The position numbers and the translations under genes were made by a program. A stretch of DNA of 64,000 bases from the sequence record PQ390715.1. One strand, written 5' to 3'. This DNA comes from Escherichia phage SHEFM2K. Of the stretch, positions 3,851-23,603 are shown piece after piece. Position 1 is the first letter of the stretch. Every line of letters starts with the position of its first letter. The notes below the pieces were generated by a model, which was not told the origin of the DNA, made no database searches, and worked only from the letters and a program-made list of their open reading frames with translations.

Positions 3851-3858
3851 TATTTATA
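3851..3858 (-). promoter_or_regulatory. T4-type late promoter octamer TATAAATA (minus strand) upstream of the capsid gene
   Basis: Plus-strand tatttata = TATAAATA on the coding strand, about 45 nt upstream of the capsid ATG and inside a 9-bp inverted repeat (tttttcagt...actgaaaaa); the late sigma factor gp55 is encoded in this window. Confidence 0.6.
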
Positions 3859-3896
3859 GAACTGAAAAATTTGATTATTAAAATGCTTTAAAATGT

Positions 3897-5012
3897 TTAT
3901 TTTTTATTGATACCTGAAAGAACATCGAGTTCTTTTAGGAATGCCATATCGTCAGCGGTCATTTCTTCGCTTTCAACAATAGCCTGACGGTTGCCAGTGA
4001 TTACTTTACCTTCTGCAAGAGTTTTCTTAGCGGAAGACTGAACTGCTTGACGAGTGGTAGCAGATTCATTTACTTTAGTACCGTTAAGTACTGACTTATG
4101 GTACTTGCTGAAATCTTCTTTAAGCTTTTCAGTAGGTGAAGTAGCTAGAAGGGATTCCATAATTTGTTTTTGCTGTGCAGTTAGTGGTTTTACTAGTTCA
4201 GACATAATCGCATTACGTGCTTGTGCATCTTCCATAATACGTAGTTTGGTTTTAGCAGCTTTAACGGCATTAGCAGTTTCATGTAGTTCTTGCTTAACTT
4301 GAGCAATTTCATCTTCTTTAGATTTAATTGATTCAGTTAGGGAACGTAGCAATGAATTTTCATTAAATTGTTTGACATTAAACTCTTGAGCAAATGCTTC
4401 AAAGATTTTACGACCAAACATATTTTGTTTTGCTTCCACTAGATCTTGTTTCAACGCATATAGATTCTTCTGAGTGGTTTCTGCAATATATTTAGCAGCA
4501 CTTTCAGATGTACGTTTGATGAAGTTATTACGAGCTTCAGCAATTTGACGTGAACCTTCAGCAAGTAGTTTAACGCGAGTTTCTACTAGTTGGCGTTTTT
4601 CAGTGTGGAATTCTTTTAGCTCTTCTGCTAGGATACCGTTAGAAAAATTAACGAATTTACCCATGCATTCATGAAGATGCTTACGTTCTTTACGCATTTG
4701 TTTAACTTCTTCAGCCAAAACAGAGTTTGAAAACGCAGAGAAATTGCTTAGTGTTTTACGTAGAGTTACACGATCTTCAACGAGACGTTTTTTCTCTTCA
4801 TATACAGCACCCATTTCTTCAGCAATGACTTGAGTAACCATAGTGTTCAAACCTTCGGTTAGTTCAGCCAAATCTTGCTGATAACGGCCTTTCATTTCTT
4901 CACGCATCTCTGCGGCTAGTGTATTCTTTTCTTCATTCCATGCTTCCTGAATTAGCTGTTTTGCCTCATCAGAAAGAGATGATTCTTTTAGAAGCTTTTC
5001 TAATTTAGACAT
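3897..5012 (-). CDS. Prohead scaffolding/core protein (gp22-like position), highly charged alpha-helical, 371 aa
   Basis: K/E/A/Q-rich heptad-like composition; lies between protease-position gene and capsid gene as T4 gene 22 does. Confidence 0.55.
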   Translation of the reverse strand: MSKLEKLLKESSLSDEAKQLIQEAWNEEKNTLAAEMREEMKGRYQQDLAELTEGLNTMVTQVIAEEMGAVYEEKKRLVEDRVTLRKTLSNFSAFSNSVLAEEVKQMRKERKHLHECMGKFVNFSNGILAEELKEFHTEKRQLVETRVKLLAEGSRQIAEARNNFIKRTSESAAKYIAETTQKNLYALKQDLVEAKQNMFGRKIFEAFAQEFNVKQFNENSLLRSLTESIKSKEDEIAQVKQELHETANAVKAAKTKLRIMEDAQARNAIMSELVKPLTAQQKQIMESLLATSPTEKLKEDFSKYHKSVLNGTKVNESATTRQAVQSSAKKTLAEGKVITGNRQAIVESEEMTADDMAFLKELDVLSGINKK

Positions 5013-5059
5013 TCGTTCTCTCCTTTAAGTACTGAAATATCTGTACTTCAACATACAGA

Positions 5060-5067
5060 TATTTATA
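5060..5067 (-). promoter_or_regulatory. T4-type late promoter octamer TATAAATA (minus strand) upstream of the scaffold gene
   Basis: Exact octamer on the minus strand about 45 nt upstream of the 3897-5012 start codon. Confidence 0.55.
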
Positions 5068-20906: not shown

Positions 20907-20919
20907 GGAATAAAATATT

Positions 20920-23583
20920 ATGGCAGATACAAGTAAAAAGTATGCACAACAGCAGTTGGGTCGTTTTGACCCATCTTATCCGCAGTTAGCAACTGTTATG
21001 GATAACAGAGATCCAACTAAATCAGGAAAACTGAAAGTTTGGATACAAGGTTCTCAAAGTGATAAAAACTCAAAAGAATCATGGATAGAAGCATCTTACA
21101 TGTCTCCTTTTGCTGGTAAAACACCAGGTATTCCAAGTGCTGATGCATATGGTCAATATCCAAAAGGATACGGTTTTTGGGCAGTACCACCAGACGTAGG
21201 GTGTACAGTTGTTGTAATTTTTGCACAAGCCCGTACATTCCAAGCATATTGGATTGGTTGTGTATATGACCAGCGTATGAATACTATGGTTCCAGGTATG
21301 GCAACTGAAGTAAGTAATTATGGTGGAACTGATATGCCACTTCCTGTTACTGACTATGATCGTAACACTATCACTACCGATATGCAAGACAAATATGCTA
21401 ACGTTCCAATTATCGCAGGTCTTAAAAAGCAAAACCTTTTATATGACGAAGAAGCTGGGTTGGCAAATCGTAGTAGTACTCGACAAACCACCAGTACTGT
21501 ATATGGTATGTCTTCGCCACGTGGTAATAGTTTTATTATTGATGATGGATATACTGAAGAGGAATTAACAGCACCAACGTGGGATCAAGACCCAGATGGA
21601 TATCAAGATACACAATTTAATAACCCAGTAAACGATACACGTGTTGGTTCTCGTAAAAATGAAGGTGTCGTAATAAAAACACGTAGTGGTGCACAACTTC
21701 TTTTATCAGAAGCTACTGGTGATGTTCTTTTAATTAACCGTGATGGCACTGCACGTATAAAATTCACTGGTGAAGGTGATATTGACATGCACTGTGATAA
21801 GAATATTAATATTCGTGCTGGTCAAGATATTAATATTACTGCTGGACGTTCATATAATATTGAAACCGGACAAGATTTCAATGCACGAGTTGGTGCAAAT
21901 ACTAAATTAGATCTAATTGGTGCTCTTGATGCAAAAGTTGGTGGACAAGTTGTTGTTAATTCTGGGGCAGACCTTCGTTTAGTTACGGCTGCATCATTAC
22001 GTATGCAAAGTGGTAGCAGTACTGATATTACGGCTGGTTCAAATGCTTCTATTTCTGCCGCAACATCTGCAAACCTAATTGGATCATCATCAGCAATTAT
22101 TAGTGGTGGTGGTCAAACATTAACAGTTAATAGTGGTGGTAATAGCGGCACTGCTGAATTTACTGCACCAAACTTTAGAACACCATCTGCTGGTCTTAAT
22201 GAACACATTCATGATATTGCTGCATGGGTTAACGCTGAAAATCATGGTAGTTATGTTGAACCACCAAGACAAGGTGGTGGAAGTGGTTCTAGTGAATCAC
22301 CAGTACAACCACAACCAGCAAATGATGTATCACCAGAATTACCCGTAGCACAAGACACTGAAGCTGTTCAGTTTGTTAACTATACATCAGAAACTGAACA
22401 AGTTCAATCACAAGATTTGATGACATCTGATCCTGGGATGACTGGATATAGTATTACATATGAAGGTTTACATATGTTAATGCCATGTAGCGGTACTATT
22501 CGACAATATGGTTACTGGGGGAAAGGTGTTCCAACACAAAGTGGAGGAAAGGCAGACCGTTCAGGTTGGGAAATACAATGTAAAGGTGATGTAGTTGCAC
22601 CAGATGGTGGCGTGGTAGTAATTACTAATGGTGCTCTTTTAATACAACATAAGTCTGGATATAAATCTATTTTTTATAATATTCAATCTGATTTATTAAA
22701 CAAAGATGTTGTTCAAAAAGGTCAAGTTGTTGGAAAAGCAAATGGTGTCATACAGTTTGAAATTCGTGTTACATCAGCAAATGTTCTTGGATTCAGTGGT
22801 TCTGTTGACCCAGGATTATTTTATGCTTCACAAACAGGAACAGGGTCTGATGCGGCGAATAAAACATTAATTGGTGGTCAAGCAACTAATCAATCTGCTC
22901 CAAAAGCAGTTGTACAACCTTCAGTTGATAGTGATGAATTGGTAGTTACAACAAAAATCAAAACGATAGGTACTGGATATTCTCAACGTGGTTCTCGTCA
23001 TGTGCCTCGTAGAAGAAGAACACAGAGAAGTGGAGCTTCAACAACTCCGGTGGAGCAACCTACCTATAATATTGGAAATGTTGATAAAACTGCAATCGAT
23101 TGGAAAGTTGTTCCAGGTGATGCACAGTTTATTTCTGAATTAAAAGAATATGAAGGTACATTACAATACCAACAAGCAAAAGGATATTATCGTAATGGTA
23201 AATTCTGGCGTTATTTGGATAGTCGTGGGTATCCAACTATTGGTTATGGTCACTTGATTATTAGTGGTGAAAATTTTTCAGATGGAATAACTGAACAGCA
23301 AGCCAACGATATGTTAGTTCGTGATAGTAGTAAAGCTATATATGATGCTAAATCAATTTATGCTTCATATAACATGAAAACACCTTATTTGGCTCAACAA
23401 GTACTATGCCAAATGGTATTCCAGATGGGTAAAGGTGGGGTACTTAAATTTAAAACTATGTTGTCTGAATTAGCTAAAGGTAATTATAAACAAGCTGCTG
23501 CTCAAATACGTAATTCAGCTTGGTATCGCCAAACTACTCGCCGTGCTGAGTTAATGGCTCGTCGTTTAGAGGCATGTCAATAA
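20920..23583 (+). CDS. 5: gp5-like baseplate hub / cell-puncturing protein: N-terminal OB-fold, beta-helical repeats, M23-peptidase-like region, C-terminal T4-type lysozyme domain; 887 aa
   Basis: N-terminus (VMDNRDPTKSGKLKVWIQG...GFWAVPPDVGCTVVVIFAQ) fits the gp5/gpV OB-domain pattern; VGANTKLDLIGALDAKVGGQVVVNSGADLRLV-type repeats; C-terminal TIGYGHL...MVFQMGKGGVLKFK...NSAWYRQTTRRAELMARRL matches the T4 lysozyme signature MVFQMG...SRWYNQTPNRAKRV. Confidence 0.75.
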   Translation: MADTSKKYAQQQLGRFDPSYPQLATVMDNRDPTKSGKLKVWIQGSQSDKNSKESWIEASYMSPFAGKTPGIPSADAYGQYPKGYGFWAVPPDVGCTVVVIFAQARTFQAYWIGCVYDQRMNTMVPGMATEVSNYGGTDMPLPVTDYDRNTITTDMQDKYANVPIIAGLKKQNLLYDEEAGLANRSSTRQTTSTVYGMSSPRGNSFIIDDGYTEEELTAPTWDQDPDGYQDTQFNNPVNDTRVGSRKNEGVVIKTRSGAQLLLSEATGDVLLINRDGTARIKFTGEGDIDMHCDKNINIRAGQDINITAGRSYNIETGQDFNARVGANTKLDLIGALDAKVGGQVVVNSGADLRLVTAASLRMQSGSSTDITAGSNASISAATSANLIGSSSAIISGGGQTLTVNSGGNSGTAEFTAPNFRTPSAGLNEHIHDIAAWVNAENHGSYVEPPRQGGGSGSSESPVQPQPANDVSPELPVAQDTEAVQFVNYTSETEQVQSQDLMTSDPGMTGYSITYEGLHMLMPCSGTIRQYGYWGKGVPTQSGGKADRSGWEIQCKGDVVAPDGGVVVITNGALLIQHKSGYKSIFYNIQSDLLNKDVVQKGQVVGKANGVIQFEIRVTSANVLGFSGSVDPGLFYASQTGTGSDAANKTLIGGQATNQSAPKAVVQPSVDSDELVVTTKIKTIGTGYSQRGSRHVPRRRRTQRSGASTTPVEQPTYNIGNVDKTAIDWKVVPGDAQFISELKEYEGTLQYQQAKGYYRNGKFWRYLDSRGYPTIGYGHLIISGENFSDGITEQQANDMLVRDSSKAIYDAKSIYASYNMKTPYLAQQVLCQMVFQMGKGGVLKFKTMLSELAKGNYKQAAAQIRNSAWYRQTTRRAELMARRLEACQ

Positions 23584-23595
23584 ATATTTTAGTAC

Positions 23596-23603
23596 TATAA
23601 ATA
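23596..23603 (+). promoter_or_regulatory. T4-type late promoter octamer TATAAATA upstream of the free-standing lysozyme gene
   Basis: Exact octamer 17 nt upstream of the ATG at 23620. Confidence 0.55.

Follow-up and report, generated by a model that had tools for sequence, protein, structure and literature searches.

Predicted late promoter boxes and the genes behind them

The DNA analysed here, called the window throughout, is a stretch of 64,000 nucleotides (nt) from Escherichia phage SHEFM2K (sequence record PQ390715.1). We describe its late promoter boxes, the genes located behind them and a gp55-type sigma factor which may read these boxes. The head module (2630..10929, minus strand) encodes a protein of 734 amino acids (aa), the portal (gp20), the product of a 75-aa open reading frame (ORF), a 286-aa virion protein, the protease (gp21), a scaffold in the position of gp22 and the capsid protein (gp23). 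The baseplate module (17600..38133, plus strand) encodes a virion protein, a small wedge subunit, a 749-aa virion protein, a gp5-like hub with a lysozyme domain, a lysozyme, gp25-like and gp6-like proteins and a 3333-aa virion protein. An earlier annotation had been made from the letters alone and is called the sequence-only reading hereafter. Gene assignments were upheld for the prohead protease, portal, endonuclease VII, gp46 and gp47 (of the SbcC/SbcD type), the gp5-like hub with its lysozyme domain and the separate lysozyme. The capsid protein has the length of 391 aa given in the sequence-only reading and is a member of the gp23 family (Pfam Gp23, 1.3e-89). For the 371-aa ORF assigned as scaffold, the only match is a PHROG of unknown function; it carries the label of a scaffolding protein in other records.

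The exact octamer TATAAATA is present in the window in six copies, two on the minus strand (3851 and 5060) and four on the plus strand (11018, 12907, 17557 and 23596); an exact search recovered each of the six copies located by the sequence-only reading. All of them are intergenic, are oriented towards the adjoining gene and end 16–47 nt upstream of its start codon; a GGAG-type ribosome-binding site lies between box and start (6/6). On the minus strand, the boxes are located 45 nt in front of the major capsid gene (box 3851..3858, gene 2630-3805) and 47 nt in front of the scaffold gene (5060..5067 and 3897-5012). On the plus strand, they precede the gp26-like baseplate hub gene (11018..11025, 34 nt from 11060-11896), the endonuclease VII gene (12907..12914, 30 nt from 12945-13436), a virion structural gene (17557..17564, 35 nt from 17600-18331) and the 162-aa lysozyme gene (23596..23603, 16 nt from 23620-24108). 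The six genes are the ones to which the octamers had been assigned before, and all code for virion or lysis proteins or for endonuclease VII. The 17557 octamer is counted as intergenic because the start of the TTG-extended ORF was moved from 17510 to ATG 17600, the start used in the annotation of Escherichia phage PBECO4.

The total number of octamers is not above chance (6 vs 9.9 ± 3.2 in dinucleotide shuffles). However, no copy is found inside the window genes, where 6.6 are expected from a synonymous-codon shuffle of 61 kb of coding DNA, and 3.1 kb of spacers with a G+C content of 30% contain six copies vs 1.2 expected under a first-order Markov model. The probability of all six copies falling into spacers, calculated from the shuffle and Markov expectations, is about 0.157^6 = 1.5e-5. 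The non-random signal is the placement of the octamers, not their number.

The octamer itself proved to be real as a signal but too narrow: the true core is NATAAATA with a free first base, and the window contains about 17 sites of this kind rather than six. ATAAATA occurs in 18 copies, 17 of them in spacers or at their edges and one inside a gene (8895). Boxes are located 16–64 nt upstream of start codons. Among the additional minus strand sites, the one at 761..767 (AATAAATA) is about 31 nt upstream of a tail-fibre gene that extends beyond the left edge of the window, and the orthologous site precedes PBECO4 gp515, a tail fibre protein gene. The next one (1108..1114, GATAAATA) is found in front of the 108-aa gene 770-1096, the PBECO4 counterpart of which is annotated as a GIY-YIG nuclease. 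Within the head module, ATAAATA is located 17 nt upstream of the prohead protease gene 5079-5702 (5720..5726, AATAAATA; a weaker candidate), 64 nt upstream of the 75-aa gene 6673-6900, itself located downstream of the portal gene (6965..6971, CATAAATA), and 32 nt upstream of the 734-aa virion protein gene 8725-10929 (10962..10968, CATAAATA).

On the plus strand, the lysozyme gene has a tandem second box 33 nt upstream of its start (23580..23586, AATAAATA). The box of the gp6-like baseplate wedge gene 24621-28082 directly follows a terminator-like T run and is 58 nt upstream of the gene (24556..24562, AATAAATA). In front of the 3333-aa virion protein gene, the box (28119..28125, CATAAATA) leaves just 6 nt to the first ATG (28132) and 36 nt to the in-frame ATG 28162, which is preceded by GGAG, so the gene probably starts at 28162 and not at 28132. 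A divergent pair of sites is located further downstream: 46171..46177 (AATAAATA, minus strand) is 32 nt upstream of the 165-aa gene 45641-46138, and its partner 46206..46212 (GATAAATA, plus strand) is about 36 nt upstream of the ATG of a tail protein gene (PBECO4 gp546). The start of the latter at TTG 46213 was probably called too far upstream, as the PBECO4 annotation uses the downstream ATG instead. The last site (56997..57003, plus strand, AATAAATA) precedes the 654-aa gene 57037-59001 by 33 nt.

Avoidance and conservation of the core

Genome-wide tests were performed with the full genome of PBECO4 (348,113 bp), which shares 99–100% identity with the window wherever the two were compared. 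The baseline for avoidance was a synonymous-codon shuffle of 560 PBECO4 genes (281 kb), with both strands counted. Exact TATAAATA occurs 15 times in PBECO4, and 12 of these copies, including the six sites of the window, are in promoter position. The coding DNA contains only three copies vs 40.1 expected. When the four NATAAATA octamers are pooled, 13 copies are found in coding DNA vs 138 expected, i.e., a roughly 10-fold depletion on both strands. An equal frequency of the motif inside genes, proposed earlier as a check on its promoter nature, was found neither in the window, with its zero copies in genes, nor in PBECO4.

In a ranking of all 8-mers, every top-depleted word that follows the poly-A runs contains TATTTA/TAAATA, most of them with the full TATTTAT/ATAAATA core. 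The two most depleted hexamers are TATTTA (47 vs 244) and TAAATA (84 vs 244). Scanning of single substitutions has shown that any change in positions 3–8 (TAAATA) abolishes the depletion (ratios 0.78–1.43). Position 2 partly tolerates C or G (0.30–0.36) and, to a greater extent, T (0.65), and position 1 is free (0.00–0.14 for all four bases). TATAAT-containing TATAATAA is not depleted in PBECO4 genes, nor are TATAAAAA and TATAAATT/G/C. The functional core of the late box is NATAAATA. Within genes, the box is depleted in antisense (1 vs 26.5) as well as in sense orientation (2 vs 13.6). Since the antisense depletion is at least as strong as the sense one, the pattern fits a promoter acting at the DNA level and not an RNA signal.

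Of the 53 ATAAATA copies in PBECO4, about 34 are located 10–65 nt upstream of a same-strand start codon. The genes behind them code for the tail tube, tail sheath, tail fibres, capsid, scaffold, protease, lysozyme, baseplate hub and wedge and many virion structural proteins. Annotated virion genes follow 21 of the 34 promoter-positioned sites vs 67 of 551 genes overall (hypergeometric P=8e-13, with virion classes read by hand from annotation tables). Alignment of the 34 sites revealed no conserved -35 element, and A is found 6 nt after the box in 25 of them. In T4, late transcripts begin 6 nt after the box. This A is likely to be the transcription start in PBECO4 and in the window as well.

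Conservation was assessed in seven lineages compared at the capsid region (73–80% identical): the window, Munch, GAP32, CBB, fHe-Yen9-04, RaK2 and XaC1. All seven have an unchanged ATAAATA at the same place upstream of the capsid gene and likewise upstream of the scaffold gene; the base preceding it is T, C or G. Correctly oriented ATAAATA was found in front of the hub, 734-aa and 17600-type genes in 4/4 lineages, where the spacers are otherwise barely alignable. Orthologues of the 734-aa gene in RaK2, GAP32 and Erwinia phage pEa_SNUABM_50 have the minus-strand box in front of them, and the hub gene (11060) orthologues of three other genera have a copy of their box. The protease box (5720) was found only in Asteriusvirus and phage Munch among the lineages compared. 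As a control, 24 kb of the T4 early region contain ATAAATA just twice, 30 nt upstream of gene 49 and 19 nt upstream of I-TevII. The former site, AATAAATA, precedes the T4 endonuclease VII gene, so T4 and the window have in common that a late box is linked to endonuclease VII.

The gp55-type sigma factor and the proposed reading of the boxes

The gp55-type late sigma factor of the window (279 aa, 16629..17468, minus strand) contains a clade-specific insertion of about 110 aa at residues ~30–140. Its PHROG matches are 12791, “sigma factor for late transcription” (3e-154), and, over residues 125–262, the general gp55 PHROG 234 (8e-18). Pfam, NCBIfam and single-sequence PDB searches returned no match, and the protein was recovered only by PHROG, family profile and fold searches. 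In tblastn, its C-terminal half finds gp55 of cyanophages, of Caulobacter phage Cr30 and of a pelagiphage (E down to 3e-11). A profile of 28 family members matches T4 gp55 in PDB (7D7C_F, 1.2e-7) in two pieces: profile positions 2–29 align to gp55 2–29 (KKYLNNADLLREI vs KYNYVNNKELLQAI) and positions 149–243 to gp55 23–116. This two-piece alignment identifies the extra ~110 aa as an insertion and not as an N-terminal extension. Pairwise identity to T4 gp55 is 24% (E=2e-4). The gp55 assignment of the sequence-only reading, for which a profile search had been suggested as a check, holds in both profile and structure searches.

The other parts of the T4 late transcription apparatus were searched for among all PBECO4 ORFs. 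With T4 queries, phmmer found a gp44-type clamp loader (9e-22) and ranked the gp55 homologue as the top match (E=0.1); these two served as controls. The gp45, gp62 and gp33 queries returned nothing from the PBECO4 ORFs, gp33 having been sought by phmmer alone, without a profile or fold search. For ten candidate ORFs close to the replication genes, the PHROG matches were all of unknown function, with no gp45 among them; a diverged clamp is possible. Scans for a C-terminal tail motif revealed nothing in common with the DNA polymerase tail (...NGFFTW). The C-terminal tail of T4 gp55 binds the sliding clamp. The T4 protein ends in ...SPSLDFLYEAND, and the window sigma factor ends in ...ERKNEDGSV; acidic-aromatic tails are present in some distant gp55 homologues (DIFDFGD, LFPFDD, ILTYDD). 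The authors of the CBB study likewise report finding neither gp33 nor gp45 (PMC5259590), and gp33 orthologues and PCNA-type clamps are stated for group 2 jumbo phages in Iyer et al. (2021). The expectation of T4-style late transcription stands as far as the promoter and the sigma factor are concerned; gp33 and gp45 were not detected in the searches described, and the clamp-binding tail is lacking.

The gp55 gene has no late box of its own. Upstream of it, a sigma-70-type promoter-like site is located at 17526..17553 (minus strand), consisting of GGGACA, a 16-nt spacer and TATAAT with TG before the -10 hexamer. The TG-extended -10 element is kept in RaK2, GAP32 and pEa_SNUABM_50, and a promoter was reported in front of the gp55-like gene of CBB (PMC5259590). 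The site may well function as the promoter of the gp55 gene. Its -35-like hexamer (17553-17548, minus strand) directly abuts the late box 17557-17564 (plus strand), a layout kept in four lineages, so occupancy of one could affect the other.

We consider it very likely that the virion genes of this phage carry late promoters consisting of a -10 element only, with the core NATAAATA, which are read by the phage gp55-type sigma factor. The sigma factor would be made earlier in infection from its sigma-70-type promoter and would replace sigma-70 on the host RNA polymerase core. The polymerase would then be directed to the NATAAATA boxes, and the genes for head, baseplate and tail proteins, lysozyme and endonuclease VII would be turned on at a late stage of infection. 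Recognition of the box by the gp55 homologue is proposed by analogy with T4 gp55 and TATAAATA, and late timing of the box-driven genes would follow the same scheme. A further speculation, which we regard as rather unlikely, is a reduced variant of the T4 system in which the gp55 homologue with its clade-specific ~110-aa domain of unrecognised fold acts without gp33 and without a sliding-clamp tether, the insertion supplying the missing contacts. If true, late expression would lack the mechanical link to DNA replication that exists in T4, and Rak2-like phages would offer a natural comparison for gp55-type activation without gp33/gp45.

Several observations weigh against the proposed late promoters and their reading by the gp55 homologue. 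The endonuclease VII box is not kept as ATAAATA in RaK2, GAP32 and pEa_SNUABM_50, with TTAAATA in its place in the latter two. The more distant PA5oct has no box upstream of its capsid gene, and the RNA-seq paper on this phage reports sigma-70-like promoters only. The sigma factor has no SLDFLYEAND-type tail and contains the 110-aa insertion, and the failure to detect gp33 and gp45 points in the same direction. Finally, PBECO4 gp356 is a sigma-70-family factor with regions 2, 3 and 4 and might read some of the boxes.

The last point leads to an alternative in which the boxes are real promoters read by another factor, either gp356 or host sigma-70 using the box as a -10-like element. TAAATA matches TATAAT in four of six positions, and the link between the gp55 homologue and the box rests on analogy. 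On the other hand, the 34 aligned sites have no -35 element, and the early promoters of this phage have a separate architecture, TTGACA-N17-TATAAT. A scan of window positions 2400–18000 for sigma-70-type promoters revealed no enrichment (59 vs 64). Genes tolerate octamers with TATAAT, such as TATAATAA, but not NATAAATA, so the selective agent tells the two apart, as T4 gp55 does. We therefore find such reading by another factor improbable.

Action of the motif on RNA, as a signal for 5'-UTR processing, stability or translation or as a terminator tail, would agree with the location of boxes in 5' leaders, often right behind terminator-like hairpins with T runs. It would, however, predict avoidance in the sense orientation only, and the reverse complement is depleted at least as strongly. 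Besides, the motif is the T4 late promoter sequence and a matching sigma factor is encoded, which makes a role at the RNA level highly improbable. The possibility that AT-rich spacers hold TATAAATA merely by composition, for which their low G+C content and a window total below the shuffle mean could be cited, is refuted by the placement statistics, the 10-fold genome-wide depletion, the association with virion genes and the conservation of boxes in otherwise diverging spacers, and retains practically no probability.

Gene order, relatives and comparison with known systems

The T4 head genes are arranged in the order 20-67-68-21-22-23. The head module of the window retains this order: portal, two small proteins, protease, scaffold, capsid. 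The gp46 homologue, a SbcC/Rad50-type recombination nuclease subunit (715 aa, 13455..15602, minus strand; PHROG 77, 1.3e-108), and the gp47 homologue, a SbcD/Mre11-type subunit (349 aa, 15611..16660, minus strand; PHROG 100, 2.2e-75), adjoin the gp55 gene. In T4, one strand carries 49 ... 55 ... 47, 46, 45, 44, 62, 43. In the window, 55, 47 and 46 are contiguous on the minus strand in the T4 relative order, without the small ORFs found between them in T4, and endonuclease VII adjoins them on the opposite strand. With order and strand both matching T4, the 55-47-46 block is conserved. It is flanked by the gp26-like hub gene followed by the head module on one side and by the remaining baseplate module on the other. 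The synteny comparison found this arrangement to be common to RaK2, GAP32, CBB and the Erwinia, Yersinia and Salmonella members; the RaK2 GenBank record (JQ513383) labels the genes gp26, gp49, gp46, gp47 and gp55. The rearranged T4 gene order claimed before, with 46-47-55 between the head and baseplate genes, is thus right about the neighbours, which do differ, but the block itself is collinear with T4.

The 734-aa protein encoded next to the portal gene, described as non-T4-like before, has no Pfam or NCBIfam match and is confined to Rak2-like phages according to tblastn. Its gene (8725-10929, minus strand) is divergent to the gp26-like hub gene. The protein evolves far more quickly than those encoded around it, with 38% identity to its RaK2 counterpart, compared to about 80% for the capsid protein in a RaK2-type Klebsiella phage. 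Some records label it as a putative tape measure protein. The 162-aa lysozyme (23620-24108, plus strand) and the lysozyme domain at the C-terminus of the gp5-like hub are paralogues (53% identity over 158 aa, E=3e-57), and the hub gene (20920-23583, plus strand) adjoins the lysozyme gene with its two tandem late boxes. Between the hub operon and endonuclease VII there is an 839-nt stretch (12106-12944) with no ORF of at least 50 aa and several terminator-like hairpins. GAP32 and pEa_SNUABM_50 have a gap of similar length (about 800 nt) at the matching place. Searches of the window, including 12106-12944, for tRNA genes and Rfam families found none.

A megablast search with window positions 2000–24000 found 35 phage records covering at least 80% of this region. 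The top relatives are Escherichia phages BAU.Micro_ELP-22, E9.1, PBECO4, SP27, phAPEC6 and 121Q (98.7–99.6% identity). Identity to PBECO4 is 99.6% over window positions 2560–24000 and 100.0% over 2600–5750, and PBECO4, 121Q and phAPEC6 share a common gene order with the window at 99–100% identity over 21 kb. By sequence similarity, the window belongs to an Asteriusvirus-type jumbo myovirus of the PBECO4/121Q/phAPEC6 group of Rak2-like phages; the genus is assigned from the taxonomy lines of the records, and Rak2-like jumbo myoviruses have genomes of about 350 kb. The lineage was previously described as a divergent one within or near the T4 superfamily. It is indeed distant from T4, but it is not new, being the already named Rak2-like group, genus Asteriusvirus. 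The phage falls outside Straboviridae: its capsid protein is 33–35% identical to that of Tequatrovirus over 55% of its length, identity of the gp55 homologue to T4 gp55 is as low as given above, and the 49/46/47/55 block is located between the hub gene and the remaining baseplate module. Taxonomy of the closest records places them outside this family as well.

Within the region compared and the left end of the window, divergence from deposited genomes is confined to the first 2.5 kb. An endonuclease gene located there, 3' of the capsid gene (1492-2490, minus strand; PHROG 681), has its best match (86%) in phage TH47. As this gene has no near-identical match, the window represents a close relative of the listed records and is none of them. 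PBECO4 has another set of small genes at this locus, and RaK2 and PA5oct also have endonuclease genes directly after the capsid gene. The locus looks like a homing-endonuclease hot spot.

The strongest compositional anomaly of the window is unrelated to the late boxes. The 8-bp palindrome CAGTACTG with the core AGTACT occurs 25 times vs 0.94 expected (shuffle maximum 4), including sites at 684, 9862, 13487, 17009, 21492, 24580, 29586, 38749, 45460, 51233 and 63192. In PBECO4 coding DNA, CAGTACTG is found 152 times vs 14.1 expected from the codon shuffle, and AGTACT 746 times vs 214 (z=36), with copies in each of the three reading frames. Enrichment of the palindrome extends to the other enterobacterial Rak2-like genera that were sampled, but neither PA5oct nor T4 shows it. 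It occupies set places in the spacers of early promoters (TTGACA-N11-AGTACTGTATAAT) and is present in some 5' UTRs as well; its positions turn over between genera. A bias of the very-short-patch repair type was rejected as an explanation of the AGTACT excess, since single-substitution neighbours are not correspondingly depleted. A literature search for the CAGTACTG motif found no paper, and this excess is probably a more interesting lead than the late boxes. Several 6-bp palindromes are scarce in PBECO4 coding DNA: CTGCAG (0 vs 72.7), CAGCTG (1 vs 61), GGTACC (0 vs 46.6) and CCATGG (0 vs 30.9). This looks like restriction-site avoidance.

The value of the late boxes is mainly in annotation: about 17 late promoters in the window, about 34 in a PBECO4-type genome and two to three corrected start codons. 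In addition, the core NATAAATA is among the words most purged from coding DNA on both strands and is kept across Rak2-like genera.

T4 late promoters have the sequence TATAAATA, and gp55 reads them together with gp33 and the sliding clamp gp45 (Geiduschek and Kassavetis, 2010, cited in PMC5259590; PDB 7D7C/7D7D). The phage studied here differs from T4 in the free first base of its box and in its sigma factor, which has the ~110-aa insertion between the equivalents of gp55 residues ~22 and ~23 and lacks the clamp-binding C-terminal tail; gp33 and gp45 homologues were not detected. The best matches outside the clade come from T4-like cyanophages and distant T4 relatives, with 28–30% identity in the gp55 core (E to 3e-11) and about 29% over the full-length capsid protein. 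These phages do not have the gp55 insertion, belong to separate families and have genomes half the size.

Much closer is CBB, for which an ATAAATA consensus with 35 sites in front of structural genes, its resemblance to T4 late promoters and a gp55-like factor are described in the promoter passages of Buttimer et al. (2017; PMC5259590). The same motif is stated there for GAP32 with reference to Abbasifar et al. (2014). According to those passages, the consensus, the gp55-like factor and the failure to find gp33 and gp45 are the same as here. In our comparison, the boxes of the capsid, scaffold, hub and structural genes of CBB and GAP32 are orthologous to those of the window. CBB belongs to the genus Mimasvirus, the window phage to Asteriusvirus. 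The RaK2 genome paper is silent on promoters, and our literature search found no published promoter analysis for Asteriusvirus. The finding is a correct rediscovery, as the ATAAATA motif and the gp55-like factor had already been published for CBB and GAP32. Our additions are quantitative: they define the avoidance footprint, show that the first position is free, trace the footprint across genera and identify the gp55 insertion; the promoter passages of the CBB paper do not include coding-strand avoidance, the requirement at each position or the cross-genus footprint given here. The closest systems remain those of PBECO4, 121Q and phAPEC6, which have the same genes in the same order as the window, and the PBECO4 annotation names the gp55-type protein “sigma factor for late transcription”.

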